In this document: positions 1 through 46,932 of the stretch, piece after piece | Numbering within the stretch: position 1 is the stretch's first letter | How the letters are laid out: the number at the start of each line of letters is the position of its first letter | DNA from: Escherichia coli | GTDB taxonomy: Bacteria; Pseudomonadota; Gammaproteobacteria; Enterobacterales; Enterobacteriaceae | DNA length: 64,000 nucleotides | Strand: one strand, 5' to 3' | Assembly: GCF_030013205.1 (NCBI RefSeq) | Contig: NZ_CP122648.1 | Program-made: the position numbers and the translations under genes | The notes under the pieces: model-generated | Database searches by the model: none | Told to the model about the DNA's origin: nothing | The model's input: the letters and a program-made list of their open reading frames with translations, nothing else

Positions 1-273
1 AAAGATCTTCGGGTTGATAAGCGTGAAACCAGTAACCTTTTTCTTCTTCGGGAGTTTCTGGTCCGTCGGCGCGGAAAGTGGTTACGGGAGGGATTTGTAT
101 ATACCCATAATGACAACGTGCAAACTCAGATATATTTTTCCTGATTTGTTGATAGGTGGCATTAAAAGCATGAAGAATCGCTTCGCCAGGTTTTTTGGGG
201 GTGATGATTTCACATTGTGATTTCTGAACAGCAGTAAGAGATTTACGCTCAAGTGTTTGCCGTAGATGTTCTG
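1..273 (-). CDS. Partial gene of unknown function, truncated by the window edge and by IS1
   Basis: Hand translation of the minus strand shows one frame open across 1-273 (peptide ...PEHLRQTLERKSLTAVQKSQCEIITPKKPGEAILHAFNATYQQIRKNISEF...); the + strand 68-aa ORF here looks spurious. The reading frame runs into the first base of IS1. Confidence 0.3.
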
Positions 274-328
274 GGTGATGCTGCCAACTTACTGATTTAG
301 TGTATGATGGTGTTTTTGAGGTGCTCCA

Positions 329-604
329 GTGGCTTCTGTTTCTATCAGCTGTCCCTCCTGTTCAGCTACTGACGGGGTGGTGCGTAACGGCAAAAGCACC
401 GCCGGACATCAGCGCTATCTCTGCTCTCACTGCCGTAAAACATGGCAACTACAGTTCACTTACGCCGCCTCTCAGCCCGGTACGCACCAGAAAATCATTG
501 ATATGGCCATGAATGGCGTCGGATGTCGCGCCAGTGCACGCATTATTGGCGTTGGCCTCAACACGATTTTCCGCCACTTAAAAAACTCAGGCCGCAGTCG
601 GTAA
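329..604 (+). CDS. insA: IS1 InsA (transposition repressor / N-terminal part of InsAB' transposase)
   Basis: 91-aa [43 protein letters not shown]... (zinc finger plus HTH); A6C slippery motif near 580-586. Confidence 0.9.
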
Positions 605-1026
605 CCTCGCGCATACAACCGGGCAGTGATGTGATTGTCTGCGCTGAAATGGACGAACAGTGGGGCTACGTCGGTGCTAAATCACGTCAGCGCTGGCTGT
701 TTTACGCGTATGACAGGATGCGGAGGACGGTTGTGGCGCACGTCTTCGGTGAACGCACTCTGGCCACACTGGAGCGTCTTCTGAGCCTGCTGTCGGCCTT
801 TGAGGTCGTGGTATGGATGACGGATGGCTGGCCGCTGTATGAATCACGCCTGAAGGGAAAGCTGCACGTTATCAGCAAGCGTTATACTCAGCGCATTGAG
901 CGGCATAACCTGAATCTGAGACAACATCTGGCAAGGCTGGGACGGAAGTCACTGTCGTTCTCAAAATCGGTGGAGCTGCATGACAAGGTCATCGGGCATT
1001 ATCTGAACATAAAACACTATCAGTAA
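523..1026 (+). CDS. insB: IS1 InsB reading frame (expressed as the InsAB' fusion by -1 frameshift)
   Basis: 167-aa ORF overlapping the insA 3' end in the -1 frame; sequence ...[22 protein letters not shown]... Confidence 0.85.
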
Positions 1027-1036
1027 GTTGGAGTCA

Positions 1037-1648
1037 TTACCCAATTTTTGAACTGTCTTTAAGATGAATATTACGGATAAGAAAACGAATGTAGTTATCG
1101 TTTTTAGATTCCCAGTGCGTATATTTACCAACTATGCTATTATTTTCTGACTGCCAGTGATCGAATGCTGTCTGTCCACTTATATTTTTATGATTAATGT
1201 CGCAACCAGCCTCAATTAGTGCATCGTACACATATCCTTCAAATGGAATGAAAAGAAAGGAATTGCCATAGCTATCTTTGGTATGGATATCTAGTCCTGC
1301 TTTGATAAGATATTTTACTAACCCTGGTGAAACATCAATATGTTGAATCGCAAGGGTGCCTGACTTATTCCGGTGGTTAACATTAATACCATTGCTGACA
1401 AGAAGTTCCACTGTTTCAACATTTTGAGCATAGAATAATGCATTATTACCGTCATTATCCAAGTGGTGAATGTCAATGTCAGCGTCAATCATTGCCTGTA
1501 TAGCTTCAGGTACATTACAGGTAAAAAGAGCAGTTTGACCTTTACTATTGCACATATTTATATCCATGCCAGCCTTAAGGCAACGAAGGACACCATTTTT
1601 AGACTTTACACGGAATAGGTTATTTTTATTATTTTCTCTTGATATCAT
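1037..1648 (-). CDS. Ankyrin-repeat protein; its stop codon lies inside the IS1 terminal repeat, so the C-terminus may be truncated
   Basis: 203-aa ORF with repeated ankyrin-like units (GQTALFTC..., DGNNALFYAQ..., SGTLAIQH..., YGNSFLF..., SGQTAFDHW); stop codon at 1037-1039 is within the last 5 bp of IS1; AT-rich DNA. Confidence 0.7.
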   Translation of the reverse strand: MISRENNKNNLFRVKSKNGVLRCLKAGMDINMCNSKGQTALFTCNVPEAIQAMIDADIDIHHLDNDGNNALFYAQNVETVELLVSNGINVNHRNKSGTLAIQHIDVSPGLVKYLIKAGLDIHTKDSYGNSFLFIPFEGYVYDALIEAGCDINHKNISGQTAFDHWQSENNSIVGKYTHWESKNDNYIRFLIRNIHLKDSSKIG

Positions 1649-2167
1649 TGTTTATCTCCTTTTTTGTTGTTTTCAAGATATTAATGACACCAGATTTTAC
1701 GGTATTCAAATTTATTTTTGTTTTATTAGGGGGTATCTGATTTGGTTTGCTTAAGGTTATTCTTAACTTAATGGAACATAGGGACGTTAAGGTTATCCTA
1801 TGTGATGTGGATTAACCATTTTCACAAGAATATTTATCCATATTGGAACTAATCTGTATAAAGGAGATAATTAGAGGCTCAGATATTAATACTATAGAGA
1901 GTAATGCTATAGGATATGGAAAAGATCATGTAATATAATGGTGGTTATTAATGTTCATCTTAATTTTGGAAATTAAATGAGTAGTGTTTTTTATGAGGTT
2001 TTTTGCTGTTGATAATTCTTATTAAAATTTGAAGAGCATCCTTTAAGTTATTCGGCTTGAGGATGCTCATTTAAAATTTAAGCAGCGTAGTCTTTTTCAA
2101 CAGCCAGGAAGGGGTGATGCTGCCAACTTACTGATTTAGTGTATGATGGTGTTTTTGAGGTGCTCCA

Positions 2168-2569
2168 GTGGCTTCTGTTTATATCAGCTGTCCCTCCTGT
2201 TCAGCTACTGACGGGGTGGTGCGTAACGGTAAAAGTACTGCCGGACATCAGCGCTATCTCTGCTCTCACTGCCGTAAAACATGGCAACTGCAGTTCACTT
2301 ACACCGCTTCTCAACCCGGTACGCACCAGAAAATCATTGATATGGCCATGAATGGCGTTGGCCTCAACACGATTTTACGTCACTTAAAAAACTCAGGCCG
2401 CAGTCGGCAACCTCGCGCATACAGCCGGGCAGTGACATCATCGTCTGCGCGGAAATGGACGAACAGTGGGGCTACGTCGGGGCTAAATCGCGGCAGCGCT
2501 GGCTGTTTTACGCGTATGACAGGCTCTGGAAGACGGTTGTTGCGCACGTATTCGGTGAACGCACTATAG
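2168..2569 (+). CDS. insA: IS1 InsA variant (11-aa deletion, read-through)
   Basis: [19 protein letters not shown]...[16 protein letters not shown] lacks [11 protein letters not shown] and continues past the usual stop (TAA changed to CAA). Confidence 0.7.
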
Positions 2570-2832
2570 CGACGCTGGAGCGTCTTATGAGCCTGCTGTC
2601 ACCCTTTGACGTGGTGATATGGATGACGGATGGCTGGCCGCTGTATGAATCCCGCCTGAAGGGAAAGCTGCATGTAATCAGCAAGCGATATACGCAGCGA
2701 ATTGAGCGGCATAACCTGAATCTGAGGCAGCATCTGGCACGGCTGGGACGGAAGTCGCTGTCGTTCTCAAAATCGGTGGAGCTGCATGACAAAGTAATCG
2801 GGCATTATCTGAACATAAAACACTATCAATAA
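2455..2832 (+). CDS. insB: IS1 InsB frame of the variant copy
   Basis: 125-aa [30 protein letters not shown]..., near-identical to copy 1 InsB. Confidence 0.7.
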
Positions 2833-2877
2833 GTTGGGACCATTACCAAATAGTTTATATGCTAAAAATTTAGGGAA

Positions 2878-5800
2878 TCATTTTCCTAATTCTCCAGCTA
2901 AAAGTTCAGCCTGCTTCAAAACAGTCTCTGTGGCGAGCAATGACATATCAGGCGGATAACCATATTTTTTGAGCAGACGTTTTACCACCACGCGAATTTT
3001 TGCTCTTGCTGCTTCTTTCACTGTCCAGTCAAGACTGACATTGTTGCGGATAGCCTCCGTAAGTACGACTGCCAGTTCTCGTAGTTTTTCCTTTTCCATT
3101 AACTCGCGAGCACTGTCGTTATCTGCAACAGCAGAATAGAAGGCATATTCATAAGCGCTGAGGTTTAACTGGCTGGCAAGGCTGTCAGATTCCTGGATAG
3201 TCTTGGCAAGCTTGATTAGCTCATCAATTACCTCCGCTGCGGTCAGTACCTTGTTCTGGTAGCCATTGATTGCAGAGGTCAGCATATCAATCAGTTTTTT
3301 GCCTTGGGTGATACTTTGATTCGAGCGAACCTTGATCTCGTCAGAAAGCAGTTTTTTAAGCGTTTCCAAAGCAATATTTCTGTGTTGGTAATCCTTCATT
3401 TCCTGAAGGAATTCTTCAGAAAGAACGGAAATATCAGGTTTTTGTATCCCAGCAGCGTCAAAAATATCAACAACTTTATCGGTAACCAGAGCCTGATCGA
3501 TAGTCTGTTTTACCCGAACTTCGAGACTGTCATTGTGTTCTTCTTCTGATCCGTCTGAGTTTTCAGTAAATTTATTCAGTCTGGCTTTTACTGCCTGGAA
3601 GAATGCTACTTCGGGTGCCGCTTCCATTGCTTTATCGTGCGGTGTCGCCAATGCAAATGCCTGCGATAAGGCTGCAACCGCAGCGAGGAAACGCATTTTA
3701 CCTTTACCGTTATCCAGCCCTAAAATATGGTTTTCTGATTCAAGAATAATTGTCAGGCGTTGTGAGGTAGTTGCGGCAAAGTAAGCTTTGTAATCGTATC
3801 CATGCATCATGCCTTCCAGGATTTCCAGCTTTTCCTGCATGAGCGTTACGGCTTCTTCCTGAACCTCAGCAGGATCTCCACGTCCACCTGCATCAGAGTA
3901 AAAGGAGAGGGCTTCTTTTAAATCAGAGGCAATGCCCAGATAGTCAACAACCAGACCGCCTATCTTATCTTTATACACACGGTTCACACGGGCAATTGCC
4001 TGCATAAGGTTGTGGCCTTTCATTGGTTTGTCGATATACAGCGTATGCATGCTGGGAGCGTCGAAGCCGGTTAACCACATATCACGCACTATCACCAGTT
4101 TCAGCTTGTCGTCGTCATCCTTCATACGGTTAGCCAGAACCTGACGTTCTTTTTTTGTGGTGTGGTGTTTGGCAATTTCTGGCCCGTCAGCAGCAGAAGA
4201 GGTCATGACGACTTTTATTATACCGTCATTTAAATCATCGCTGTGCCATTCAGGTTTTAAGGCTATGATTTCTTTATATAGTTCAGCAGCAATACGGCGG
4301 GACATGGTAACAATCATGCCCTTACCATGATCGGCATTGGATTTTAAGCGCTGCTCAAAGTGCAGAACCATATCCGCCGCAATCGCTTTAATACGTTTTG
4401 AACTGCCAATCAAACCTTCGATTCTGGCCCATTTAGAACGTTCTTTTTGCGTGAGCGTCAGTTCGTCCTCGTTAAACTCATCATCAAAGTCTTCAATAAG
4501 CTGACGACCTTCATCACTGATGGCAATTTTGGCAAGACGGCTTTCATAAAAGATACGAACTGTTGCACCATCTTCAACGGCCTGCGAGATATCGTAGATA
4601 TCAACATAGTTACCAAAAACAGCAGGCGTGTTGACGTCCGTTTTTTCTATGGGGGTTCCGGTAAAGCCGAGATAGGTCGCATTAGGTAAGGCATCACGCA
4701 TATATTTGGCAAAGCCGTAAACGGTGCGTTTACCTGTTACGTTGCCTTCGCTGTCTTTCACGTCAACTTCTTTGGCGCTGAAACCGTACTGGGAACGGTG
4801 TGCTTCATCAGCGATAACGACAATATTGGTTCTGTCTGACAACAACTCATAGATATTGCTGCCATCATCAGGCTGGAATTTTTGAATAGTAGTAAACACC
4901 ACACCGCCAGAGGCGACACGCAAATATTCTTTGAGTTCTTCCCGGTTGTTGGCCTGTTTTGGTGTCTGACGAAGTAGCTGGGTCGCGGAAGAGAACGTAC
5001 CGAATAGCTGATCATCTAAGTCGTTACGGTCAGTAATCACAACAACTGTCGGATTATCCAGCGCCAGCACAATTTTCCCGGTATAAAACACCATCGAAAG
5101 CGATTTACCGGAACCCTGAGTATGCCAGACTACGCCCGCTTTGCGATCTCCGGTTTTTTGCGCATTAACAAGATCTTTACTGTTACGTCCCTGCTGGCGC
5201 AGTGCCACTTCGGCAGAGGGGGAGTCCGCATTCACCGCTGAGGCACGAATAGTGGAAAGAACTGCTGCATTGACCGCGTAGTACTGGTGATAAGCCGCCA
5301 TTTTTTAACAGTACGGATACTGATAATCCCTTTGCTGTCTTCATGTTTGCTGGCCTCAAACACGATAAAGTGGCGGATTATATCCAGCAGCGTTACAGGA
5401 TTAAGCAACCCCTGTAATAAAACTTCAAGCTGTGGTTGGGTACTGGTGGCTTGCGTTTTACCGTTAGCAGTTTTCCACGTCATATAACGACTGAAATCGG
5501 CAGAAACCGTCCCCGCTTTGGCTTCCAGCCCGTCAGATATCACATTAAAAGCATTGTAGTTAAACAGACCGGGGATTTGGTTCTGATAGGTTTTAATCTG
5601 ATTATAGGCACCTGTTACCGTTGCATTTTCGTCAGCGGCATTTTTAAGTTCGATAACGACTAATGGCAGGCCATTGATGAATAAAATAAGATCAGGTCGG
5701 CGGGTATGGTTGCCTTCTTTGATGGTGAGCTGATTAATGACCAGAAATGCATTATTAGTGGGATCGTTAAAGTCGATCAGGCTGGCCAGTTCTCCTTGTG

Positions 5801-6116
5801 TATTACCATCCTTGCTGACTTCGATATTGATTCCTTCGGTCAAAAGGCGATGAAAGGTTAGATTGTTTGCCATTAGGTCAGGTGAGCTGATCTGCATCAC
5901 CTGTTTTAGAGCTTCTTCACACTTCTGCTCACTAAGGTGCGGGTTAATTCGTTGCAATGCTGTACGCACTTTATCTTCAAGGATAACCTGCTGATAGCTA
6001 CGTAACGGATTGATTCCACTGGGTTCAATGTCCGGGCCGTAAACATACTCATAGCCCAGCCCTTGCAGGTGCTCAATTGCCATTACTTCAATATCGGATT
6101 CGGTCATCTTTGCCAT
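2878..6116 (-). pseudogene. hsdR: Type I restriction enzyme R subunit (HsdR), split by a -1 frameshift in a homopolymer tract
   Basis: Two overlapping ORFs: 5232-6116 (N-terminal 294 aa) and 2878-5301 (807 aa with Walker A TQGSGKS and DEAD-like VIADEAHR). The junction is a 6-nt T run at 5301-5306 (A6 on the coding strand); adding one A would join the frames as ...[15 protein letters not shown]... Confidence 0.85.
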
Positions 6117-6174
6117 GCGTACTGTCCTTATTGCCGCTTAACCAGAGAGCGGGCTGTACACCCGCATAATTATT

Positions 6175-7368
6175 TTATGCTACTGATGCGATTGCTTCTT
6201 CCGCATACTGAACCCGTACTTCGCCGCTCATCAGTTTGGGAAGGAGAGTGTCGCGCAGAGATTCTATGTTTTTAATTTGTGAGTTGTTAATACTTATTTT
6301 TTTCCAGAAGAAATCAATCTGTGTAGTGAATTCTTTCACCATACACTCCGGGGGGAGTTTGAATTCTGGGCGTTGTAATCCGTCAGCCGACAGCTGATTT
6401 ACAGTTGAACCGTTAGTTGCAGCAACAACTTGCTCATGCATATCTTTGGAGCAAAGTAAATAGTACAGAAAAGCATTGGTTAAGTAACTATCGTCATTGA
6501 TGCTGATTTTAAATAAATGATGCGTATATATGGATAATTCGCTTTCTGTTTTTGGAATTATAGCAGGATACCCTATGAGTCGATATTCATGGCCCTGTTC
6601 TGTATTGGCTACAATGATATCCCCAGGCTTTATAATATGCCTTTCTTTAAAATCACCATTGTAGTATTTTATACCTGCACTCTTATAACCACCGCCCTCA
6701 AGTACTGAGTTCAAACTAAAAAGTGGAATGCCGTTATCTGACGTGGTAAGGCCGGCTCCCTTGTAGCTTAATCCCTTAGCTACTGTAATATGACAATCAA
6801 GAGTCGTTATTTCCCAATCCGCATGCGTCTCTTCAATAAACCACTGTCTAAATAGGGTTTCTGCCATGGATTCCAGAGTTTTATTCTGGCGATGAAGCAG
6901 GTCTATTTTGTCTTTAAGAGAGGACAAAATAGAGGCGATGGCTTTTTGTTCAGATTCATCAATTGGTAAGTAAAGAGGAATCAAATTTAGCGATGCTTTA
7001 TTTAATTTTGGTTGAGCAGCACCTGTTAAATAAGGAGATAGATCAAGTTGTGAAAAATATTGGATTATCAATGCCGTTAAATGGGGCTTTTTAGCTTTAA
7101 GGACATGAGCGTGATTATTAACCCAAAATTTTCCAGTAGCTTCAAATGCTATAGGTGTTTTTCTGGACTTTAAGTTTTCTCCATCTTCAGAAATAAGGAT
7201 GTAGCTGCCATCAAAAATATAATTGTCGATATAATCGACAATTCCTGACGCTCCATAATATGGAAAATTTCCTTTCTTATGGGCTCGTTCCATAGCACTC
7301 AAAGGAATTCTTTGTGCGTTGCAAAAATCTGCTAATTCAGTTATACAAAAATTTCTCCACCTACTCAT
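6175..7368 (-). CDS. hsdS: Type I R-M specificity subunit (HsdS)
   Basis: 397-aa ORF between hsdM and hsdR; its start overlaps the hsdM stop (ATGA); two-target-recognition-domain architecture inferred from length and position. Confidence 0.8.
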
Positions 7369-8912
7369 AAAACCACCTTCGCCAGATTATCAACGATGGC
7401 TCTGTTCAGACGCGCCTCTTCTTCCAGTTGCGCTTCAAACTCAGCTTTAAGAGCCGTAAAGCGTTCTTTAAAGTCGAAATCGTCTTCTTCATCAGCAAGA
7501 CCAACATAACGGCCAGGTGTCAGCACATAATCGAGTTTAGCAACTTCAGCAATGTCTACTGACGCACAGAAACCAGCGACGTCTTCGTAGTCGCCACCTT
7601 TGTTACGCCAGTTATGATAGGTATCAGCGATGGTTTTTATATCGTCGTCAGAAAGTACTTTGGTACGACGATTAATTAAATGACCGAGATTACGGGCATC
7701 AATAAACAGAATTTCTTTACTACGATCACGATACTGGTTGCTGTTATGACGGTCACGGCGCATAAACCATAATGCAGCAGGGATCTGAGTATTCAGGAAC
7801 AGCTTTGCCGGTAAGTTGACGATACAGTCAATCACATTGGCATCTTTTACCAGTGCAGCACGAATATCACCTTCACCAGAGCTTTTAGAAGTTAATGCCC
7901 CTTTTGCCAGAACAACACCCGCTTGCCCTTTAGGAGACAAGTGATACAAAAAATGTTGCATCCATGCAAAGTTAGCGTTGCCAGCAGGTGGAATGCCATA
8001 TTGCCAGCGGGCATCACCACGAAGCTGCTCACCAGACCAGTCGGAAACGTTAAACGGTGGGTTAGCTATGATAAAATCAGATTTCAAATCTTTGTGAGCA
8101 TCGTTAAGAAATGAACCTTCATTATTCCAGCGAACGTGTTCAGAATTAATCCCACGAATTGCCAGGTTCATTTTTGCCAGACGCCAAGTGGTCTGGTTGG
8201 ACTCCTGCCCATAGATCGAAATATCGTCAATATTTCCCTGATGTGCTTCTACAAATTTTTCTGACTGAACGAACATACCACCAGAACCACAGCAGGGATC
8301 AAAGACACGGCCTTTATAGGGTTCCAGCATGTTAACCAGCAGGCTTACAATAGATTTTGGCGTATAGAACTGGCCGCCTTGTTTGCCTTCTGCCAGTGCA
8401 AATTCACCTAGGAAGTATTCGAATACGTGACCTAAAACGTCAGCAGAGCGTGCTTTGGCATCTCCTAGTGCAATGTTGCCAATCAGATCTATCAGCTCAC
8501 CCAGAACAGTGGCGTCGAGGTTTTGTCGGGCATAGACTTTCGGCAACACACCTTTTAACTGTGGATTGCCCGCTTCGATAAGCTCCATCGCATCATCAAC
8601 CATCTTACCGATTTCAGGAAGCTTGGCCTTAGAAATCAGATAGTTCCAACGTGCAAGCTCAGGGACAAAGAAAACGTTGTAAGCGGTGTACTCGTCTTTG
8701 TCTTCCGGATCAGCACCTGCGAACTCGCCTTTACCGGCTTTCAGCAACTCATAATGAGATTCAAAAGAATCAGAAATGTACTTAAGGAAAATGAGGCCTA
8801 GTACGACGTGCTTGTACTCGGCTGCATCAATGTTTTTACGCAGTTTGTCTGCCGCTTTCCACAGGATGACCTCTAACGGGTCTGTTTTGATTTCTTTAGG
8901 TTTTCTGGCCAT
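7365..8912 (-). CDS. hsdM: Type I R-M N6-adenine DNA methyltransferase subunit (HsdM)
   Basis: 515-aa ORF with SAM-binding [11 protein letters not shown] and catalytic NPPF motifs. Confidence 0.9.
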
Positions 8913-9075
8913 TAGCGTAACCTTATGAAGGGGGAAGATGGCCCTATTTTGCCTTAAAGTTCCGCTTGTTACGAGCTTATACAGCGATTAATTATTATCT
9001 GGTTTTAGTGTGTTCGTGTAGCTCAGCAAGTGCAATGACTCATGGAGTAAATGCTTTGTAGCGGGATTGTAGATG

Positions 9076-9393
9076 TCAGGTCATTGCCGTCAATGGAGCC
9101 AGTGTCATTGGCATAATTGCTGCACAGCCGATGCCACGCGCACATTCGCTAGTTCACTGTGGTTCATCGTGTGTACTACACCAGTACGCAGTCCGGGAAG
9201 TAACGGCATGGCAGAATCGTTTGTAAAGACGTTCAAGCGGGATTATGTGTACGTAGATGATCTGCTGGATGCAGTCTAAATGATGGAAACAATGGCAGAA
9301 TAGATAGAGGATTATAATAATCTGCATCCACACAAGGGGTTGAACATGAAATCGCCACGCGAATATCGTGATGCCATATTAGCAGTTAATTAG
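9076..9393 (+). pseudogene. IS2-like (IS3 family) transposase 3' remnant, truncated and interrupted by stop codons
   Basis: Translation ...VRSPGSNGMAESFVKTFKRDYV... then, after stops, ...IEDYNNLHPHKGLNMKSPREYRD... matches the C-terminus of IS2 InsD as I recall it ([20 protein letters not shown]...YNEWHPHSALGYRSPREY). Confidence 0.55.
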
Positions 9394-10508
9394 CCGTGTC
9401 CGTTTTAGCAGGGACAACTCCAGTATTCAAAAAAGCTTTCTTAGTGCATATGCATGAGGTGAATAGATGTACAGGCTATGACAAACCATAGTTGTAATTT
9501 TTAATGTTTAAAATTCTCCGTTACAGTAGGACATTCCTTGTACATTAAATTCCATCTAAGGTTGAATTTTTAATTTAATAAGGTCGCAATCTAAAATGAT
9601 GTGTATGGGGTTATTTGTAAGATGATTTTTTATTTTTGATAGTGGTGATTAAGGGAGCGGGTAATGTTTGTCTATTCAAAAATATAGAGATTCAAGGTTG
9701 GTAGCAGTTTGGCTTCTTTTATAACCGAAGGGCAGAAAAGCAAGGGGAACTCGAAGAAGCAAGCGCAGCGGCTTCGCAGAGTTAGCCCTTGCTTCTCTTA
9801 TAATTGGCATTATTCATTCAAGAACAATAGGATCTTCGCTTGTACAAGCGAAGCTATAATAAAAACAATCAATTAATAATTTTAAAAGTATTAAACAAGA
9901 ACCTATTGACATTCATAAAATACAAGTTATTTATAATGTATGCCATAAATAAAAAGTTTTATGTCATATGTATCCTGCACTATGTGCAGTTAATGTACCA
10001 CTTGTCCCATAGATGGGAATATTGGAAAGGTTACTTTGTTTTGAAGTAGCCTTTCGTCCTTCAATATTAACGATTACTTATTGCTATTACCAAGTCCAGT
10101 CGAATCGAAGAACATCTTTTATCTGAAACGACTCCTAATACCCGGTTAAAGCCACAATATCTCTCGCATACGTAGACCAAAGAAAAATTATGATATTAAC
10201 TATGTGATTTTTTTTAGTGTTAAGTTGAATAATTAAATACTGGAGAGTTTTCTGTGCACTACCAATTGCTGGTTCATCTGTTCTGCCGCTGATGTTTCTG
10301 ACGAATCTCCCGGTGACACAGAACTGTCCCTCTCTACCAGCCTTTATTCGACTCAATGTCCGGCTGCTGATACGCAGTTATCCCTTCGTATCAATGACTG
10401 ACACTTAAACGTAATGCTTTGGTTGCTGGCGTATCTGACAGCTTCTTCGGCGTGAAGGTCGTTGTGTAAGTATACTTCTTGGTTTATTTAGGCTATATAA
10501 AACCATGA

Positions 10509-11405
10509 CTATGACTTGCTGTTTTCAGTAAGAGTCTTATCATCCAAAGAATTTATTCTAGAAATTCTTTTTAACTCATTAAGATAATCAACCTCGTTTT
10601 CTAAGAACCAATGAAGAACTTTAGAATTGCCAAGTAATTTATTAATATATGACTGGATTATAACGAATTTCAACATATCTGAACCATACTCGGTTTGAAG
10701 CTTTTTCGTTTCTTCCGAAGTTGTTGCCATTTCTTGTTCCAGACGAAGTATGGTTTTTTTTATGTCCTTTTTATAGGGAGTGTTTTTCCCTTTATTTACT
10801 ATCATCGATGCCGGTGTTGCATCCAAGATGCTCATTGCAAATTTTTTACTATAATTATCAAAATTAATCATTGTACCGACTGCTTCAATTTGGCGAATTG
10901 GCTTCATTTTCCTCAAAACGTCAAATGTAGCCTTAGGTATAGGTTTATCAGAAAGTTTCGCAATTACACTTGGATCTATGCCGTTCATCACATTCGCTTT
11001 ATCTTTTATGGCATCAACAGATATGCCCAAAGCAGCACTAAGTTTTTCAATTGATACTTTTGCCAGAGACTTAATTATCATTCTATGTTCTTCAACTACA
11101 TTTATATGATTCACTTGTTTGTTAGGAGTGAAAGCATCATCTATGCTCGAAAGTATACATGGAGCTTTTTCTATACCTAAGTCTTTTAAAGCCTCAACCC
11201 TTAAATGGCCATCAAGTATCTTAGTGACATCTTTATCTTTGTCATAGAATACTATTATTGGTTCAATAATACCTAAGCTTTCGATAGAGGTAACTATTTG
11301 ATGATATTTATGGCTTCGCTTTACGTTTTCTAATAATTCCTTAGATGGAATTAACTTATTAGTTTCCAGGTAAATAAAATTATCGCCAAAACGTATCTGA
11401 ATCAT
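10509..11405 (-). CDS. ParB/Srx-family protein (second of two tandem paralogues)
   Basis: 298-aa ORF; N-terminal ParB-like motif ...KILDGHLRVEALKDLGIEKAPCIL...; K/N/I-rich; start overlaps the upstream gene stop. Confidence 0.6.
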   Translation of the reverse strand: MIQIRFGDNFIYLETNKLIPSKELLENVKRSHKYHQIVTSIESLGIIEPIIVFYDKDKDVTKILDGHLRVEALKDLGIEKAPCILSSIDDAFTPNKQVNHINVVEEHRMIIKSLAKVSIEKLSAALGISVDAIKDKANVMNGIDPSVIAKLSDKPIPKATFDVLRKMKPIRQIEAVGTMINFDNYSKKFAMSILDATPASMIVNKGKNTPYKKDIKKTILRLEQEMATTSEETKKLQTEYGSDMLKFVIIQSYINKLLGNSKVLHWFLENEVDYLNELKRISRINSLDDKTLTENSKS

Positions 11406-12298
11406 TTTAATACCTCTTTGTTTACTGGGGTTAATATCTGAGATGGTAGTTCTGAAAGATTCTCTTGTTCAAGTATATGTTGAAAGCTTTTATTTATCAT
11501 TATGATGTTAAAAATCTCATTTACTATTAGTAGGTTGGTTTTTATGAATTTTGAGTTGTTATAAACAGATTTATGTTCAGCGATACTATTTTCATAAAGC
11601 TCAATCAACTCCTCTGCAGTCATCCTTTTTGATGGTTTGTGATAATAAAATCCGGCTGCTTTTGCACCTTTATTCCCAACTGTTCTTTGATTTAGAATGT
11701 GTTTTATCTTTATAATGTCCCGACTTTTTATTAATTTTTTATCATATGCTTCGGTAAGAATATCTTGTGCTTCCTCAGTTTCACATCTTGCAAATTGCAC
11801 TGCGAGATACAGAGGCAAATTACCCCGTTCGACTGCTGAGAGAAGTTTATGCTCTCCCTTATCAAGTAGCATATTAATACTGCTCACCCAGTTCGATGAA
11901 TATCCAGTAATCTCACTTATTTCGGAGTCTGAAAGTCCTCTGATTTTCATGTCTTTAATCACCTGTAATAACTCATTAGAACGTGGTCTTCTCCTTGCAA
12001 TGTTTTCAACTAAACTCATAACGTAAGCATCTTCTTCTGATACATCTCTTATAATTGCTGGAATAATAGTTTCACCTAATGCAACGAGAGCCTCTATTCT
12101 CCCTTGACCACAAATTAAAGCATATTTGAAATCGCCTTCATCAATAGCTCTTACGCTTATTGGCTTGCTTAATCCTCTTTTTTTTATGCTTTCCTTTATT
12201 TCTTCATGCACTACCTTATTTCTTGTTCGTGGGTTAAGAAATTTTATTTTTGCAATCTCAATTTGAATTATTGGGAATTCATTTTTTTCAGGCAGCAT
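11402..12298 (-). CDS. ParB/Srx-family protein (first of two tandem paralogues)
   Basis: 298-aa ORF; ...KPISVRAIDEGDFKYALICGQGRIEALVALGETIIPAIIRDV...LVENIARR... resembles ParB box regions followed by an HTH-like segment; no ParA partner adjacent. Confidence 0.6.
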   Translation of the reverse strand: MLPEKNEFPIIQIEIAKIKFLNPRTRNKVVHEEIKESIKKRGLSKPISVRAIDEGDFKYALICGQGRIEALVALGETIIPAIIRDVSEEDAYVMSLVENIARRRPRSNELLQVIKDMKIRGLSDSEISEITGYSSNWVSSINMLLDKGEHKLLSAVERGNLPLYLAVQFARCETEEAQDILTEAYDKKLIKSRDIIKIKHILNQRTVGNKGAKAAGFYYHKPSKRMTAEELIELYENSIAEHKSVYNNSKFIKTNLLIVNEIFNIIMINKSFQHILEQENLSELPSQILTPVNKEVLK

Positions 12299-13844
12299 AT
12301 AGTTCCCTCACTTTCATGCGAGTAATAATTTGTAGAAGTTTATCAAGATTATCAAATCTATAGAGATCTAATCGAATGTTGTTTGTTTCCGTCATGCACA
12401 TTTTATTATATTCGTTTTCAATCTTTGGTATGATATAAAAATCAAGAGGTGAAATATTTTGTGAATTCATTCGTATAACAATTGTTATGTCTGCTTTCTG
12501 TGAGTTATCAAACCGGACTTTCCATCTAAGTTTACCTGATTTCATATGTATGCATTTAGTAACAAGGACGGAAATTAAAAACTCATCATTGATGTAAAGC
12601 ATTGGGGCATATTTATACTCGTCTATATGACAGTTACTTTTTAAAATTTCACCCTTAAAATCCTCAATTATCTCTGAGTAAAATGATCTTAGTGCTTCAT
12701 TTATTTTGAGATAGCTGTAATCATGTTCTGGCTTATAACCAATCAAAGTATATGCTCTTAAAAGACCACCAAATCGGGTTCTATAAACAGAAGATGAAGG
12801 GCCTGTATCATCTTCATCAATGATAAAGCCTGATAGTTTTCCATTAGATTCTAATTTTTGTTTTAGTTTTTCTAATAGATCTTCATTAGTCAAATGAATG
12901 GATCGGAGCTGAATTATTTCTTGAGCTTTATTGTATTTTTTCTTTGAAATAATAGGTTTATATGCCTTGTCACATCTAACCCATTCATGTTTGGGGTTTT
13001 TTACAAGCCTACTTTTTAATTTAGATGAGGTTTTGTTATATATGTTGTTTCCAATATATTTTTCATTTGTCAAAATTTGATGTATTTTTGCACGAGTCCA
13101 TAATGTTCCATTTTCTGCAGGTATGTTCTGTTCATTTAATCTCTCAGCAATAATGAATTCTGGGACGTTATTATCTATAAAGAGATCATATATTCTATTT
13201 ACAATTTTTATTTCATTTTTTGGTCCCGGAATTAATATTACCCTATCTGTTTGAATACTCTTTCTTTTGCGGAAACTCAATATTTCTTTAGCTATGCCAT
13301 TTTCGTCTACTAAAAGACGTCTCAGCCCATAACCAGCCATACCGCCTTGATGATAACCAAGCTTTATTAAATTTACTTGCCCTATAAATACCTTTTCAGA
13401 TAGATTCCTGCTGTGATATGCAGCACTAGATCTTTTTATATTCAGTATAACAGAGGACTCTAAAGGGAAATCTTTAGTGGGTATAGGTTCGGAACAATAT
13501 ATAAGATCTACACCATTTCTCTCAAATAGAAAGGAATAATATGCCGCTTCATCACTATTTTGAAAACGACCAAAACGGCTCACATCATAAAATAATACAG
13601 CCTGTATATCTATTTTCTTTTGTTCTACATCGCTAAGTAACTGCTGCAAAGAATGCCTGCCTACGATACTGACTCCGCTCTTACCTGCATCATCGTAGGT
13701 ATAAGCGATTTCCATATTGTTCTTTTCAGCATAATCTTTGATATATTCGGACTGATTATGTAAAGAATATTGCTGATGGTCGGTAGACATCCTCAAGTAC
13801 TGCGCGACCCTAACTCTATGATTTTTGTCATTTTCGCTAGCCAT
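12288..13844 (-). CDS. Large serine recombinase (resolvase/invertase catalytic domain plus C-terminal recombinase domain)
   Basis: 518-aa ORF; N-terminus VAQYLRMSTDHQQYSLHNQ... carries the catalytic-serine motif typical of serine recombinases; overlaps the downstream ParB-like gene by 11 nt. Confidence 0.7.
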   Translation of the reverse strand: MASENDKNHRVRVAQYLRMSTDHQQYSLHNQSEYIKDYAEKNNMEIAYTYDDAGKSGVSIVGRHSLQQLLSDVEQKKIDIQAVLFYDVSRFGRFQNSDEAAYYSFLFERNGVDLIYCSEPIPTKDFPLESSVILNIKRSSAAYHSRNLSEKVFIGQVNLIKLGYHQGGMAGYGLRRLLVDENGIAKEILSFRKRKSIQTDRVILIPGPKNEIKIVNRIYDLFIDNNVPEFIIAERLNEQNIPAENGTLWTRAKIHQILTNEKYIGNNIYNKTSSKLKSRLVKNPKHEWVRCDKAYKPIISKKKYNKAQEIIQLRSIHLTNEDLLEKLKQKLESNGKLSGFIIDEDDTGPSSSVYRTRFGGLLRAYTLIGYKPEHDYSYLKINEALRSFYSEIIEDFKGEILKSNCHIDEYKYAPMLYINDEFLISVLVTKCIHMKSGKLRWKVRFDNSQKADITIVIRMNSQNISPLDFYIIPKIENEYNKMCMTETNNIRLDLYRFDNLDKLLQIITRMKVRELYAA

Positions 13845-14014
13845 GCACGAAACCTCATGGATGATTCAATACAATGTAGTGGATAAAATTGATCAAATTT
13901 CAACCGAATTCAACTGTTTTATCATTGATTAGAGCGAATTTGGTAGATCTTCGAGGTGTATGATAATCGAGAAGAGATGTGAATTATTTAGCTGATATGA
14001 CCGACAGCTTTCGT

Positions 14015-14064
14015 TATGTGGACTCAATGTCCCCATTTGTAAATGGCTATGCTTAGTCCACATA
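14015..14064. repeat. Inverted repeat TATGTGGACT ... AGTCCACATA (10-bp arms, about 30-bp spacer) upstream of the serine recombinase gene
   Basis: Seen directly in the sequence (approximate coordinates); lies in the 282-bp gap between the serine recombinase and the integrase. Confidence 0.5.
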
Positions 14065-14126
14065 GGTTAATGGTGTGATTATTAATTCTTTAACTAAATC
14101 AAGATAGTTAATCCATCATGGGAGAG

Positions 14127-15356
14127 TTATGCGGCCATAACTTTGCATTTTTGAGACGAAACATAGTCACTCCACCATTGCATGAGAACCACCCGTTCAG
14201 TGAGATACTCTGCACGATTGTAGGCTGCAATTATTTCATCTTTCTTCGAGTGGGCAAGGGCGGCTTCTAAGACATCAGTCCTAAACTTGCCAGACTCCTC
14301 AGCAGCCGTTCTAGCAATGGATCGCATACCGTGAGCTACAAGCTCACCTCCGAAACCCATACGGATTATGGCCGCATTAGCTGTTTGTTCATGCATGTGA
14401 TTGAGTGGAGCTTTGATACTGGGGAACACCCACTCTCTATGCCCGCTGATGACTTTCATTAAATCCAAAACTCGCAAAGCTTCTTTGCTCAGTGGAACTT
14501 TGTGAGGCTTCTTCATTTTCATAAACTCCGCCGGGATGTTCCACATGCCAGTTTCAATATCAATATCTGACCATCTTGTGCGAACAGCTTCACCTGGGCG
14601 AACCCATGTGAGAAGTTGCCACTCAATCAGTAGCCTTGTTTCCAAACGGATAGAAGCATTGTTTAGAGCAACCAAGAAGCGAGGGAGTTCGGAAGGGGGT
14701 AATGCTGGCATATTCTGTTTTTTTGGCTTGCTGAACCGTTGCCCCAGGTTGTCTGCCGGGTTGAATTCTATGAGTTCTTCTGTTGCTGCATAGCGGAAAA
14801 TTTCATTCAGGCGGGATATGATGCGGCGAAGTGTTTCAAGGACACCTCGTTTTTCTATGGGTTCTAAATGCTGTTTAAGCATTTTAGGGCGAATCTCCTT
14901 AATTGGGGTATCACCCAATGTGGAAAAGATATTTCTCTCTAGGCTTCGCCAGATGTCGTTAGCATGATCTTGGGAGATGCCTGACGTTTTGACTTTCTCA
15001 TCAAGCCACTTCTTGGCTACTGCTTGAAATGTATGTTCCGTGGCATCTTTCAGTGCATTGGCTTTTTGGTTGTTATGAACTTGGGGGTCTATACCATTTG
15101 TAAGCAACGACAAGTATTCATCACGTAAAGCTCGTGCCTTCGCAAGTGTAAGGTGAGGATAGGTTCCTAAGCTCACCTTAGTTCGCTTTTTGGTCACAGG
15201 CACTGCATATCTGAAATACCAATTTTTCTTCCCTCCCTTCGCCAGGGGAGCGATTCGCAACAGCAAACCATCGCCGTCAAAAAGGTTAACCTCTTTTTCG
15301 GCAGGTTTGGTGCTTTTGATTTCAGTGTCAGTGAGCTTCTTAGCGATTTTGGCCAT
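14127..15356 (-). CDS. intA: P4-type tyrosine integrase (IntA-like) at the 3' end of ssrA
   Basis: ORF 14127-15437 (GTG start in the track); probable start at 15356 (MAKIAKKLTDTEIK...), matching the N-terminus of CP4-57 IntA as recalled; conserved ...HGMRSIARTAA... region. Confidence 0.85.
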   Translation of the reverse strand: MAKIAKKLTDTEIKSTKPAEKEVNLFDGDGLLLRIAPLAKGGKKNWYFRYAVPVTKKRTKVSLGTYPHLTLAKARALRDEYLSLLTNGIDPQVHNNQKANALKDATEHTFQAVAKKWLDEKVKTSGISQDHANDIWRSLERNIFSTLGDTPIKEIRPKMLKQHLEPIEKRGVLETLRRIISRLNEIFRYAATEELIEFNPADNLGQRFSKPKKQNMPALPPSELPRFLVALNNASIRLETRLLIEWQLLTWVRPGEAVRTRWSDIDIETGMWNIPAEFMKMKKPHKVPLSKEALRVLDLMKVISGHREWVFPSIKAPLNHMHEQTANAAIIRMGFGGELVAHGMRSIARTAAEESGKFRTDVLEAALAHSKKDEIIAAYNRAEYLTERVVLMQWWSDYVSSQKCKVMAA

Positions 15357-15522
15357 GTTTGGGACCCTCGATTTTAGGACCCATCTTCGTGGGTCCCATT
15401 CAGGGTGCCATAACTCGTAGTTCTCAGCAATTCTCACTAGACTACAATAGACGTAAAAAAGCCCGCAGAGCTTGTGCTGTGCGGGCTTAGTAGACTTTAC
15501 TGAACTTCAGTACATCAATATT

Positions 15523-15885
15523 TGGTGGAGCTGGCGGGAGTTGAACCCGCGTCCGAAATTCCTACGTCCTCGGTACTACATGCTTAGTCAGTCTTTACAT
15601 TCGCTTGCCAGCTGCGGACGGACACGCCACTAACAAACTAGCCTGATTAAGTTTTAACGCTTCAACCCCAGGCAGGGCTTCCACGCGATCTCTTTTGGGT
15701 TTGACCTCTCTTGATCCCCGTCCTAAGAGCGGAGGCTAGGGAGAGAGGGCTCTAAGCAGGTTATTAAGCTGCTAAAGCGTAGTTTTCGTCGTTTGCGACT
15801 ATTTTTTGCGGCTTTTTACGAGGCCAACCGCCCCTCGGCATGCACCTTGGGTTTCGCAAATCCCGTCGAATCCAGAATCAGCCCC
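15523..15885 (-). ncRNA. ssrA: tmRNA (SsrA), 363 nt
   Basis: Reverse complement begins GGGGCTGATTCTGGATTCGACGGG and ends ...GGGTTCAACTCCCGCCAGCTCCACCA; the tag-template region is present. Confidence 0.95.
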
Positions 15886-16099
15886 AATGTGTAACGGCAA
15901 GTATACCAGATTTATGAGCGCCATGACCAGCCTCAATGGCGTTATCGTTAAAGATTTAGCACCCATGTAGCCTGATTTTTATTCGATTAAGCAATGGGAT
16001 GGCAACATTTGTGTCGGATGTGATAGCCAATAAGATGTTCATTCGCGCCGCCGGAGAGGGAGGCGCGGTGAGGAACTGGTCAATAATTGGAGTGCAGGT

Positions 16100-16582
16100 T
16101 TAACGGTGGGCGTTTTTCATGATACGCGCTTTATCCACCTGCCATTCGCGCTCTTTGATATCTGAACGTTTATCGTGCTGTTTCTTACCTTTGGCGACGC
16201 CGATTTTCACTTTGCACCAGGCATTTTTCCAGTACAGGGAGAGCGCCACTACGGTATAGCCTTCTCGATTGACGCGACCGTACAATGAGTCCAGTTCGCG
16301 CTGGTTGAGAAGTAACTTGCGGGTACGGGTAGGATCGCACACCACATGCGTGGAGGCCACGGCCATTGGCGTGATGTTAGCGCCAAACAGAAATGCCTCT
16401 CCGTCACGCAGAAGGACGTAGCTGTCGCTGATATTGGCTTTTCCTGCGCGCAGGGATTTAACCTCCCAGCCTTGCAGGGCAAGTCCCGCTTCGAACTCTT
16501 CTTCGATAAAGTATTCGTGACGGGCGCGCTTGTTAAGCGCGATGGTCGCTGAACCAGGTTTATGTGCTTTTTTCTTCGTCAT
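16100..16582 (-). CDS. smpB: SsrA-binding protein SmpB
   Basis: 160-aa [48 protein letters not shown]... Confidence 0.95.
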
Positions 16583-16713
16583 AAGCGTCGTGAATCATCG
16601 GTAATCTGAAATCGAAAACACCCCATATCAATCCTGCGGGGGACAAGGCTCTATCTTAGCATGAACCCGATGTTACCCAGCGCCGGGATAGCGTTTTTTT
16701 TACAGCAGGATAA

Positions 16714-17190
16714 ATGATATTATTTGTTGGATTTTTGTTGATGGAAATTGTTATGCCTCAGATTAGCCGGACCGCACTGGTACCCTACAGCGCGGAGCAA
16801 ATGTATCAGTTAGTGAATGACGTTCAGTCTTATCCTCAGTTTTTGCCGGGTTGTACCGGAAGTCGGATTCTGGAGTCCACTCCTGGGCAGATGACTGCGG
16901 CGGTAGATGTCTCTAAGGCTGGGATCAGCAAAACGTTTACTACCCGCAACCAGTTGACCAGTAACCAAAGTATTCTTATGAATCTGGTGGATGGGCCGTT
17001 CAAGAAATTGATCGGTGGCTGGAAGTTTACGCCGCTGAGTCAGGAGGCGTGCCGTATCGAGTTTCATCTCGATTTTGAGTTTACCAATAAGTTGATTGAA
17101 CTCGCCTTTGGCCGCGTGTTTAAAGAGCTGGCGGCTAATATGGTCCAGGCTTTTACGGTTCGTGCGAAAGAGGTTTACAGTGCCAGGTAA
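16714..17190 (+). CDS. ratA: Ribosome association toxin RatA (YfjG)
   Basis: 158-aa ORF ...[34 protein letters not shown]...; the true start may be the internal Met. Confidence 0.85.
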
Positions 17191-17470
17191 AATTGCCGTT
17201 GAGGTGGCTTATGCGCTACCTGAGAAGCAGTACCTGCAGCGCGTGACGCTGCAGGAGGGTGCGACGGTTGAAGAAGCTATTCGCGCCAGTGGCTTGCTGG
17301 AATTGCGTACCGATATCGATTTAACTAAAAACAAAGTCGGCATTTATAGCCGTCCGGCAAAACTGAGCGATAGTGTGCATGATGGCGATCGGGTGGAGAT
17401 TTATCGCCCTCTCATTGCCGATCCGAAAGAGCTGCGCAGGCAACGAGCAGAAAAATCAGCGAATAAATAA
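17180..17470 (+). CDS. ratB: RatB (YfjF, UPF0125 family)
   Basis: GTG start overlapping the ratA 3' end; ...[40 protein letters not shown]... Confidence 0.8.
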
Positions 17471-17476
17471 CAGACA

Positions 17477-17506
17477 GAAAAAAGGTGCTCATTGAGCACC
17501 TTTTTT
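17477..17506. terminator. Bidirectional rho-independent terminator between ratB and bamE
   Basis: AAAAAAGGTGCTCATTGAGCACCTTTTTT: perfect hairpin flanked by an A run and a T run (approximate coordinates). Confidence 0.8.
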
Positions 17507-17531
17507 AACGTCTTTGAGAGCAACTTTATTA

Positions 17532-17873
17532 TTAGTTACCACTCAGCGCAGGTTTGTTATCAATGTTGGTCAACACACCGCTACTGTTAAAGGTCAGCGT
17601 CAGCGTTTGCTGCGTTACACCTTCATGACCTGGTTGCTGGCGGAAGACATAGAACCAGGTATTCGTACCAAATGGATCGGACATCAACGGTGTACCCAAT
17701 GCGTACGCAACTTGTTGTTGCGTCATGCCAACGCGTATTTTGGATACGTCGTTAGCGGTCAGATAATTCCCCTGGTTGATGTCAGGACGGTAAACCACTC
17801 GCTCCAGAGTGGAACAGCCTGCGGTCAACATCAATAGTACTGCTGCTGCAGCAGTCAGCGTTTTACAGCGCAT
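17532..17873 (-). CDS. bamE: Outer membrane protein assembly factor BamE (SmpA)
   Basis: 113-aa lipoprotein [41 protein letters not shown]... Confidence 0.95.
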
Positions 17874-18021
17874 AGTGATTTGATTCCTTTTCGGGCCCGA
17901 GCAGTACGTGGCTCATCTGTAATATGCCGATGATAATAGACCTTTCGTCACTTTAAAACCTTTTGCTTTCCGGTCTTACGGCGTTTTGCTGTTTACTCTG
18001 ACCGTGAAGCAGGAAAAAAGT

Positions 18022-19683: not shown

Positions 19684-19711
19684 AGTTGTTTTCCTGTATG
19701 AAAAACCATTA

Positions 19712-19749
19712 CTGTTATTGTGTACAGTATAAACTGGTTTTATATACAG
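19712..19749. promoter_or_regulatory. recN promoter region with LexA (SOS) boxes
   Basis: CTGTTATTGTGTACAG and CTGGTTTTATATACAG (CTGT-N8-ACAG type) directly upstream of the recN start (approximate coordinates). Confidence 0.65.
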
Positions 19750-19768
19750 TAAAGAGGCTGGCGTAAAA

Positions 19769-20736: not shown

Positions 20737-21363
<627 letters not shown>

Positions 21364-21385
21364 TTTCTGCTTTCGTAATAAATCA

Positions 21386-46738: not shown

Positions 46739-46822
46739 AAATAAACCTCACCTGCTGATGCAATTTTAATTTATGCATTTTCAGCAAAGGCTTTTTTAAA
46801 AACGAATATCGCTTTTCGGTAT

Positions 46823-46850
46823 TTTTCGGATATATGCGCATATCCGAAAG
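46823..46850. promoter_or_regulatory. Dyad-symmetry element in the divergent P/O late promoter region (candidate Ogr operator)
   Basis: TTTCGGATATATGCGCATATCCGAAA between the divergent terminase and scaffold genes (approximate coordinates). Confidence 0.35.
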
Positions 46851-46932
46851 TACCGGAAATTAATCAGATGACGACGTTTTCATTTCTCCGTTAAATAACG
46901 CCAGTTTAATTTTTATCAGCGGATTAATTCAG

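Follow-up and report, generated by a model that had tools for sequence, protein, structure and literature searches.

Two IS1 copies within the window, which is the whole 64,000-nucleotide stretch of an Escherichia coli contig (NZ_CP122648.1, RefSeq assembly GCF_030013205.1), are not flanked by target-site duplications, very probably because each of them forms one boundary of a deletion. The most likely mechanism, judged from the end products, is intramolecular replicative (target-primed) transposition of IS1, giving rise to adjacent deletions. The comparison with relatives that the initial annotation had proposed was carried out on 5,426 complete E. coli genomes; it revealed that copy 2 replaces the genes of a Kiwa defence system, and that copy 1 shows a nested series of right junctions.

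Copy 1 spans 274–1041 on the plus strand (768 bp, ends re-mapped from the sequence) and is apparently intact. Its left inverted repeat (IRL, 274–296) is GGTGATGCTGCCAACTTACTGAT and its right one (IRR, 1019–1041) reads ...ATCAGTAAGTTGGAGTCATTACC, the two being complementary at 19 of 23 positions, and both the length (~768 bp) and the imperfect inverted repeats (~23 bp) of the IS1 family are present. The coding features described for IS1, namely insA, an A6C -1 frameshift motif and an insB' frame with a DDE domain (PMC12428005), were all found: insA at 329–604 with zinc ribbon (Zn_ribbon_InsA, PF03811) and helix-turn-helix (HTH_Tnp_IS1, PF12759, full at 1–46/46), AAAAAAC at 580–586, and the insB' frame at 523–1026 matching DDE_Tnp_IS1 (PF03400, 1–131/131). 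With a complete InsA, the frameshift motif and the DDE frame, copy 1 could be active. The element is identical at 768 of 768 positions in L003, L007, L015 and L016.

Copy 2 (2113–2847, plus strand, 735 bp) is decayed, according to the copy–copy alignment, the Pfam matches and the comparison of inverted repeats. It is an IS1A/B-like element of a different isoform from copy 1, lies in direct orientation with 1,071 bp between them, and shares 91–97% identity with copy 1 over two aligned blocks (~93% overall), with 54 differing positions and a 33-bp indel. The latter is an internal in-frame deletion after ~2352, through which 11 residues of the InsA helix-turn-helix are gone, and just 35 residues align to the 46-position HTH_Tnp_IS1 profile. 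The insA stop codon has been lost (TAA to CAA, base 2408), and three of the first 19 positions of the IRR differ from copy 1. Copy 2 therefore has neither intact IS1 coding capacity nor intact ends; together with a DDE_Tnp_IS1 match (E=2e-72), these features indicate that it is clearly IS1-derived and probably defective.

Insertion sequence copies are a classic source of misjoins, and the window contains an hsdR homopolymer indel that may be a sequencing error, both of which could point to an assembly artefact, with repeats collapsed or joined wrongly across the two copies. However, the differences between the two copies allow assemblers to separate them, the 100% identity of window 1–4200 in six complete assemblies makes misassembly unlikely, and the junctions of copy 2 are found again in 270 complete genomes that come from many laboratories. 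An artefact is thus very improbable, and we regard the missing duplications as real biology rather than an assembly or annotation problem.

A scan over end offsets from -4 to +4, lengths of 7–10 bp and four left/right pairings, including the outer (composite) pair, found no 7–10 bp direct repeat at copy 1 or copy 2, and the best scores (5/8 and 6/10) were at chance level. The 9-bp flanks quoted in the initial annotation were exactly reproduced for both copies: GATGTTCTG (265–273) and CAATTTTTG (the first 9 bp after the IS) match at five of nine positions around copy 1, and CCAGGAAGG (the last 9 bp before the IS) and AAATAGTTT match at one of nine around copy 2. Copy 1 therefore lacks the 8–9 bp duplication of its family, and the claim that neither copy carries one, which new end positions might have overturned, held after the IS ends had been re-mapped and all offsets and lengths scanned. 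Both copies could instead be simple insertions with 9-bp duplications worn away by point mutations, a reading that the age and decay of copy 2 might favour, or their ends could have been mis-called. Against this, no offset gives a repeat, copy 1 is too young for such decay, being 100% identical across strains, and the flanks lie 1.56 kb (copy 2) or at least 9 kb (copy 1) apart in IS-free relatives, so that we give this explanation almost no credence.

Copy 2 stands in place of ~1.56 kb that carries kwaB-kwaA in intact relatives. The alignment to the Kiwa islands L008 and L009 is gapless and breaks exactly at both ends of the element, on the left at L008 9414 or 9415 (one shared G) and on the right at 10975. 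Abutting the IRL are the last 35 nt of kwaB (2078–2112, minus strand; L008 9379–9413), consisting of the stop codon, 10 codons and 2 nt of a coding sequence that occupies 9379–10350 on the minus strand of L008. The right flank (2848–2877), beginning with AAATAGTTT, comprises the 30 nt that follow the hsdR stop; window 2848 is equivalent to L008 10976, a point that in Kiwa carriers precedes the kwaA start by 21 nt (kwaA start at L008 10954; hsdR stop at 11007). In L008 and L009, kwaA and kwaB are both full length, with KwaA recognised by PADLOC (E=4e-96) and KwaB of the relatives by Pfam (PF16162) and PADLOC (PDLC00232, E=3e-165). Adjacent kwaA and kwaB, which define Kiwa, are not found here, where 35 nt of kwaB are left, and the Kiwa anti-phage system is therefore absent from the window. 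Because a remnant of kwaB is still present, the change was a loss and not a gain.

Copy 2 together with both window flanks was found in 270 of the 5,426 complete genomes, and kwaB is retained at this position in only 16. As its junctions are common to the 270 genomes, the event is old and inherited, and a single junction pair is known for it. An IS1A/B-like element would have entered an ssrA-type defence island, and ~1.56 kb beside it would have been lost, comprising kwaB minus its last 35 nt, the whole of kwaA and 21 nt upstream of kwaA. This would have removed Kiwa and left ankB and hsdR whole; the single old event may then have been inherited, or have spread with the island, to the 270 genomes, with the element decaying afterwards. 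The IS1-free strain ABW_A33 (L006) was considered as an empty site for copy 2 and set aside, for it carries a separate, IS-free deletion of most of the Kiwa operon; the ancestral state is represented by LR-28 and 97.3.

Copy 1 was found in 13 pig-associated genomes, with 100% identity and the same left junction inside an amylase-family gene; P15-25, one member of this clone, is typed O139:H1. At 273/274 it cuts an alpha-amylase-family glycosyl hydrolase gene (ygaQ-like), of which the 3' (C-terminal) part remains at 1–273 on the minus strand (RefSeq: 'incomplete; missing N-terminus'). Window 1–274 is 100% identical to positions 19902–20175 of the island-free backbone L017, in which the intact gene runs 558 bp further. 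On its other side copy 1 abuts ankB (1042–1648, minus strand), an ankyrin-repeat gene truncated to 202 of 328 codons (ORF list, Pfam Ank families), whose open reading frame (1037–1648) takes its stop codon from the IS1 IRR. ETEC6333 and P15-25 have the gene at its full length of 328 aa, and window 1042 is equivalent to L003 5633. The truncation of both neighbours at the IS boundaries, already suspected from the sequence of the window, was thus corroborated, the amylase-family gene lacking its N-terminal 558 bp. Independent IS1 insertions in the same amylase gene occur in other strains (H256–H260).

The left flank of copy 1, GTAGATGTTCTG, is identical across all variants, and the right junction takes four forms: in ankA (flank GCAAGCCTG, three genomes), in ankB as in this window (CAATTTTTG, six genomes), at window 1774 (GAACATAGG, one genome) and at window 12815 (ATCAATGAT, the EC556 type, three genomes on the assumption that EC571 and EC581 match EC556, the sole one of the three with its right flank read). 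One fixed left junction combined with four variable right junctions is a nested deletion series anchored on the IRR, the classic signature of adjacent deletions. The missing DNA starts exactly at an IS terminus, with the IS kept, at 1041/1042, 2112/2113 (±1 bp, shared G) and 2847/2848, whereas a fixed junction paired with variable ones was seen for copy 1 (four right and one left in 13 genomes) and no nested series for copy 2. Deletion of one flank explains why copy 1 has no duplication, a feature that belongs to the insertion event and not to IS1 itself. The flanking DNA is 99.9–100% identical among the copy-1 strains, which therefore represent a recent clade.

In comparison with the island-free backbone, 9,058 bp are missing, comprising the amylase 5' end, tRNA-Ile ileY, ypjCB and ypjA; positions 274 to ~15521 of the window are IS1 and island DNA replacing them, and ssrA (tmRNA; 15523–15885, minus strand; ARAGORN, annotation and alignment to L017) marks the chromosomal end of the island remnant. 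The first copy-1 deletion took at least the 9,058 bp of backbone, plus a distal island portion in which the island relatives differ widely. An intact IS1 of the other isoform, with its IRL fixed in the amylase gene, would have generated successive or independent deletions rightwards from its IRR. The first of them may have taken out ileY, ypjCB and ypjA together with the amylase 5' end and the distal island up to ankA codon 21, giving the state of ETEC6333 and P15-25, and the next may have removed 1,254 bp, covering what was left of ankA, a hypothetical gene and the 3' end of ankB, to give this window, with longer deletions to window 1774 and window 12815 arising in sister strains. An additional IS2, with its CTCAA duplication, lies 18 bp from IS1 in ETEC6333, which makes this strain a cousin of the window and not its ancestor. 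The two IS1 events are unrelated in age and content, which was not visible to the initial annotation.

Adjacent deletions by IS1 have been known since the 1970s. Reif and Saedler (1975) reportedly described them in the gal region, and Turlan and Chandler (1995) are said to have treated intramolecular replicative transposition in the classical work on IS1/Tn9. Both subjects are reviewed in PMC9330008 (section 5.2.1). By this mechanism, the IS ends would attack a target close by on their own molecule; the stretch between IS and target would be released as a circle containing one IS copy, and the resident element would remain joined to the new target without a duplication. The usual causes of missing duplications are adjacent deletions and IS–IS recombination (PMC11708052), and the latter suggests a two-step route, in which a second IS1 of the same isoform inserts in direct orientation at the future endpoint, with its 9-bp duplication, and RecA-dependent IS1–IS1 recombination then deletes the DNA between. 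Its product would have the same sequence as that of a replicative adjacent deletion, and insertions are evidently frequent, given the many IS1 copies of the strain (18–22 matching places per genome) and the independent insertions in the amylase gene noted above. On the other hand, it needs two events per variant, and four same-orientation insertions of an identical isoform within ~13 kb, each of which would have to recombine with the one resident copy.

Four precursor queries, each joining 40 bp of IS end to 220 bp of uninterrupted target (the amylase site, the kwaB site, the hsdR-kwaA spacer and the ankA site), gave no spanning match in the 5,426 complete genomes; at these four junctions, neither a simple-insertion precursor with its 9-bp duplication (for copy 1, IS1 IRR followed by GATGTTCTGGATTGATTAG) nor an intermediate carrying a duplication or a second IS1 copy was found, and we therefore infer the original insertion sites. 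Moreover, only copy 2, at a distance of 1,071 bp, was available as a direct-repeat partner, and it never served as one: K_EC180 retains both IS1 copies and copy 1 of EC556 is pure copy-1 sequence. We consider the two-step route a minor possibility, and replicative adjacent deletion remains the preferred reading. Recombination between copy 1 and copy 2 themselves was rejected, since no variant has a chimeric IS1. The initial annotation had favoured IS1-associated deletion or recombination over simple insertion; comparative genomics upheld this for both copies, but not for recombination between them, as copy-2 polymorphisms appear in no copy-1 variant.

The arrangement of two direct IS1 copies around a 1,071-bp segment resembles a Tn9-type composite, and the IS1-ankB-IS1 unit could in principle have been inserted as a whole and its duplication mutated away since. 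Yet the outer flanks GATGTTCTG and AAATAGTTT match at only two of nine positions, and the segment enclosed by the copies belongs to the island: window 1042–2113 aligns without gaps to positions 8343–9414 of L008 and L009 at 96–98% identity, including the stretch from the ankB start to the kwaB remnant (1649–2077), collinear with islands that lack any IS1. In addition, copy 2 with both flanks is present in 270 genomes, copy 1 in 13 and the exact copy 1-ankB-copy 2 unit in only six, and the copies differ in age and isoform (~93% identical), copy 2 having a damaged helix-turn-helix and IRR. A composite origin is thus scarcely credible, in line with the earlier view that this is not a clean composite transposon, and the pair is not a member of the Tn9 type.

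Mechanistically, the deletions described here are nothing new, but they provide a clear natural example of a long-known process. They share with the IS1/Tn9 adjacent deletions a start exactly at the IS1 terminus, variable ends, an intact IS, the lack of a duplication and a unidirectional nested series; they differ in coming from natural isolates of four countries rather than from genetic selection, in a mechanism deduced from end products, and in that all four variants extend from the IRR. The intramolecular replicative transposition of IS26 in resistance plasmids (PMC4471558) similarly deletes intervening DNA by attack in cis and leaves an IS without duplication, but IS26 belongs to the IS6 family, makes 8-bp duplications and acts mostly on plasmid resistance regions, whereas here a chromosomal defence island was eroded. 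In the E. coli long-term evolution experiment, 'IS-del' events of IS150 with duplication-less junctions and deletions of 14 bp to 49 kb were likewise classed as adjacent deletions (PMC11708052); IS150 is of the IS3 family and was followed in real time, unlike the present case, which was reconstructed from genome comparison. The lost content could be identified as the Kiwa defence system, ileY, ypjA and part of a mobilisable island, illustrating the erosion of a defence island by insertion sequences, and the natural nested series could supply lineage markers for the pig-associated clone.

The type I restriction-modification operon to the right of copy 2 (2878–8912, minus strand; hsdR 2878–6116, hsdS 6175–7368, hsdM 7365–8912; annotation and ORF list) is untouched by the deletions in this window and gone in the EC556-type variant. 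It is conceivable, although we think it doubtful, that the repeated IS-anchored losses at the ssrA island were selected rather than the result of neutral decay, with copy 2 accounting for the loss of Kiwa and copy 1, later, for that of the ankyrin genes and, among sister strains, of the complete type I system. If so, a pig-pathogen lineage would have discarded its defences against phages and plasmids through an active IS1 working as a one-sided 'eraser', and virulence plasmids or prophages could have been taken up more easily as a result. In this window hsdR is frameshifted, with a run of six T (5296–5301) in place of seven in relatives, which may be a sequencing error. Other lineages show independent truncations by IS2, IS5 and ISSen4.

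IS1 copy 1 (274-1041, 768 bp; IRL GGTGATGCTGCCAACTTACTGAT, right end ...ATCAGTAAGTTGGAGTCATTACC) carries all the defining features of a functional IS1 (PMC12428005): a complete InsA with the zinc ribbon and full HTH (1-46/46, Pfam), the AAAAAAC frameshift motif at 580-586, and an insB' frame with a full DDE_Tnp_IS1 domain. IS1 copy 2 (2113-2847, 735 bp) is decayed, with 54 substitutions relative to copy 1, a 33-bp in-frame deletion between short direct repeats that removes 11 InsA HTH residues, an insA lacking its stop codon, and a changed IRR. No additional IS1 was found in the 64-kb window. In K_EC180, copy 2 shows 10 clustered differences from its counterpart here (equivalent to 2408-2733), nine of which are IS1B-type sequence, with the 33-bp deletion kept; most of the variant bases are shared with WG5 and PI12, and the pattern suggests either that one IS1 copy has converted another or that the island allele is a different one.

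The initial annotation had reported that neither copy is flanked by a target-site duplication, and indeed the 9-bp flanks match at only 5/9 positions for copy 1 (GATGTTCTG / CAATTTTTG) and 1/9 for copy 2 (CCAGGAAGG / AAATAGTTT), while the outer pair, in which the duplication of a composite transposon would be expected, matches at 2/9. Re-mapping of the exact IS ends, by moving each end up to 4 bp and allowing repeat lengths of 7-10, revealed no duplication at any offset, the best matches (5/8 or 6/10) being at chance level. Both genes next to copy 1 are truncated, as had also been noted: the alpha-amylase-family gene has lost its 5' 558 bp, and the ankyrin gene retains 202 of 328 codons, with a stop codon supplied within the IS1 IRR. 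Misassembly was rejected, given that the same junctions occur in many independent complete assemblies; six complete genomes of pig ETEC (e.g. ETEC1748, NZ_CP122719.1) match window 1-4200 of this E. coli chromosome at 100% identity. Independent IS1A/IS1B elements occupy other positions of the same amylase-family gene in EC361, PK8277, PK8217, MB20 and MB53, and annotations of the gene often show internal stops, so that it appears to be decaying and repeatedly struck by IS.

What remains of a genomic island inserted at ssrA (tmRNA, 15523-15885) occupies 274 to ~15521; in some strains the same island type adjoins mutS instead. In fuller versions of the island the order is integrase, HTH, relaxase, ATP-binding protein, ankA, a hypothetical gene, ankB, kwaB, kwaA, hsdR, hsdS and hsdM. 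The island-free backbone of CFSAN018748 reads glaH, intact amylase gene, tRNA-Ile (ileY), ypjCB, ypjA and ssrA; window 1-274 corresponds to its positions 19902-20175 and the match resumes at window 15522 (29234), so that 9,058 bp of backbone are absent. This lineage lacks the ileY gene (21293-21368 in CFSAN018748), which normally lies between ypjC and the amylase gene, and ARAGORN detected no tRNA in window 1-20000. Presumably a tRNA-Ile gene at another locus of the genome serves instead; K-12 has such a copy in ileX.

Thirteen pig-associated genomes (Belgium, the Netherlands, France, Korea and Japan) carry the exact 768-bp IS1 with the left flank GTAGATGTTCTG. Their flanking DNA is 99.9-100% identical, so that they form a recent clade; four different right flanks are present among them. 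In type 1 (ETEC6333, ETEC6334 and P15-25; GCAAGCCTG) the IS joins the amylase gene to codon 21 of ankA, likewise without a duplication, and the ileY-ypjA backbone and distal island are missing across the junction. The type 2 endpoint (the window and five other ETEC strains; CAATTTTTG) lies 1,254 bp further, inside ankB. In type 3 (K_EC180; GAACATAGG) the endpoint is at window 1774 and ankB is gone, and in type 4 (EC556, EC571 and EC581; ATCAATGAT) it is at window 12815, inside a recombinase gene, and hsdRSM, the ParB genes and IS1 copy 2 are lost. Among the type 4 strains, the right flank was read in EC556 only, EC571 and EC581 being assigned by their shared left junction and the absence of the type 1 and type 2 right junctions. 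At neither the amylase nor the ankA site did any of the 5,426 complete genomes show a simple insertion flanked by a duplication.

At copy 2, window 1042-2113 aligned without gaps to 8343-9414 of LR-28 and 97.3, and window 2848 onwards corresponds to 10976 onwards; the left break is at 9414 or 9415 of LR-28, because one G is common to the IS end and the flank. The ~1.56 kb missing comprises kwaB minus its last 35 nt, the whole of kwaA and 21 nt upstream of it. KwaA (E=4e-96) and KwaB (E=3e-165) of these relatives were confirmed as full length by PADLOC; the Kiwa defence complex, which is membrane-associated, has been characterised (PMC11785009). IS1 copy 2 has thus taken the place of a Kiwa system, which was lost rather than gained, since the kwaB 3' end survives at 2078-2112. 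A single query, designed so that 80% coverage needs both flanks, recovered the 735-bp IS1 at identical junctions in 270 of 5,426 complete genomes, and E. coli C has the same arrangement. Only 16 genomes of this set retain kwaB at this position; 29 retain the kwaA 5' region, 13 of them without kwaB. Those inspected among the 13, including ABW_A33, carry a different, IS-free deletion, so that Kiwa was lost at least twice independently. In ABW_A33 (8943-9324, compared with 9031-10617 of LR-28), ~1.6 kb spanning kwaB and most of kwaA is gone at a junction without IS. Only one junction pair is known for copy 2, and junction queries of the 5,426 genomes found no copy 2 IS1 with an intact neighbour and duplication on either side.

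Combined with the above, comparison with relatives, as the initial annotation had proposed, places copy 2 in the position of kwaB-kwaA and shows at least 9 kb gone at copy 1, which excludes the simple insertion that it had disfavoured. The clean composite transposon, likewise disfavoured there, was rejected because the outer flanks mismatch, the intervening DNA is native to the island, and the copies differ in distribution and isoform; decay of former duplications was rejected, as the flank origins lie 1.56 kb (copy 2) or at least 9 kb (copy 1) apart. The favoured reading, IS1-mediated deletion, is supported by deletions that begin exactly at the IS1 termini and by the nested junctions of copy 1, where one end is fixed and the other variable among near-identical strains while the IS itself is unchanged. 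Both adjacent deletion and IS-IS recombination are known to leave an IS without its duplication (PMC11708052). The deletions would most likely have arisen when IS1 underwent intramolecular replicative (target-primed) transposition. The alternative, in which a second IS1 inserts and homologous recombination then deletes the DNA between, would leave the same final sequence, but is less parsimonious because each variant would take two events, and IS1 would have had to insert four times in the same orientation; moreover, copy 2, the sole available direct-repeat partner, was never used, as no variant has a chimeric IS1. The missing duplications are an ordinary, well-understood phenomenon; what is neat is that the deletions form a nested series in nature and that Kiwa was cleanly excised.

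Erosion by IS elements has a hotspot in the ssrA island. In AR434 (9004-10334), an IS2 without a 5-bp duplication (GCAAC vs ATTTA) links the amylase upstream region to the ankB interior. This arrangement, widespread in other genomes, is a deletion associated with IS2 that arose independently and took away ileY, ypjA and the distal island; the IS2 in ETEC6333, by contrast, has a clean CTCAA duplication. The island is also cut or rearranged by an ISSen4 pair in WG5 and by IS5 with an inversion in PI12, and in C 236-04A it is >20 kb longer, with extra defence-like genes (SIR2/ATPase, restriction enzymes, type II R-M). In the ETEC1748 record, RefSeq annotates further pseudogenes at places that match window 9125-9394, 11403-12298, 27869-29095 and 45775-47071, namely a fragment of an integrase core, ParB with a frameshift, dgcN interrupted by a stop and kgtP, likewise frameshifted. 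A base missing from the T run at 5296-5301 (T6, vs T7 in ETEC1748, ETEC6333, P15-25, AR434 and K_EC180) splits hsdR into ORFs 2878-5301 and 5232-6116 and shows that the window does not derive from ETEC1748 itself. The frameshift is either genuine, and then inactivates the restriction subunit, or an error in homopolymer sequencing of the source assembly.
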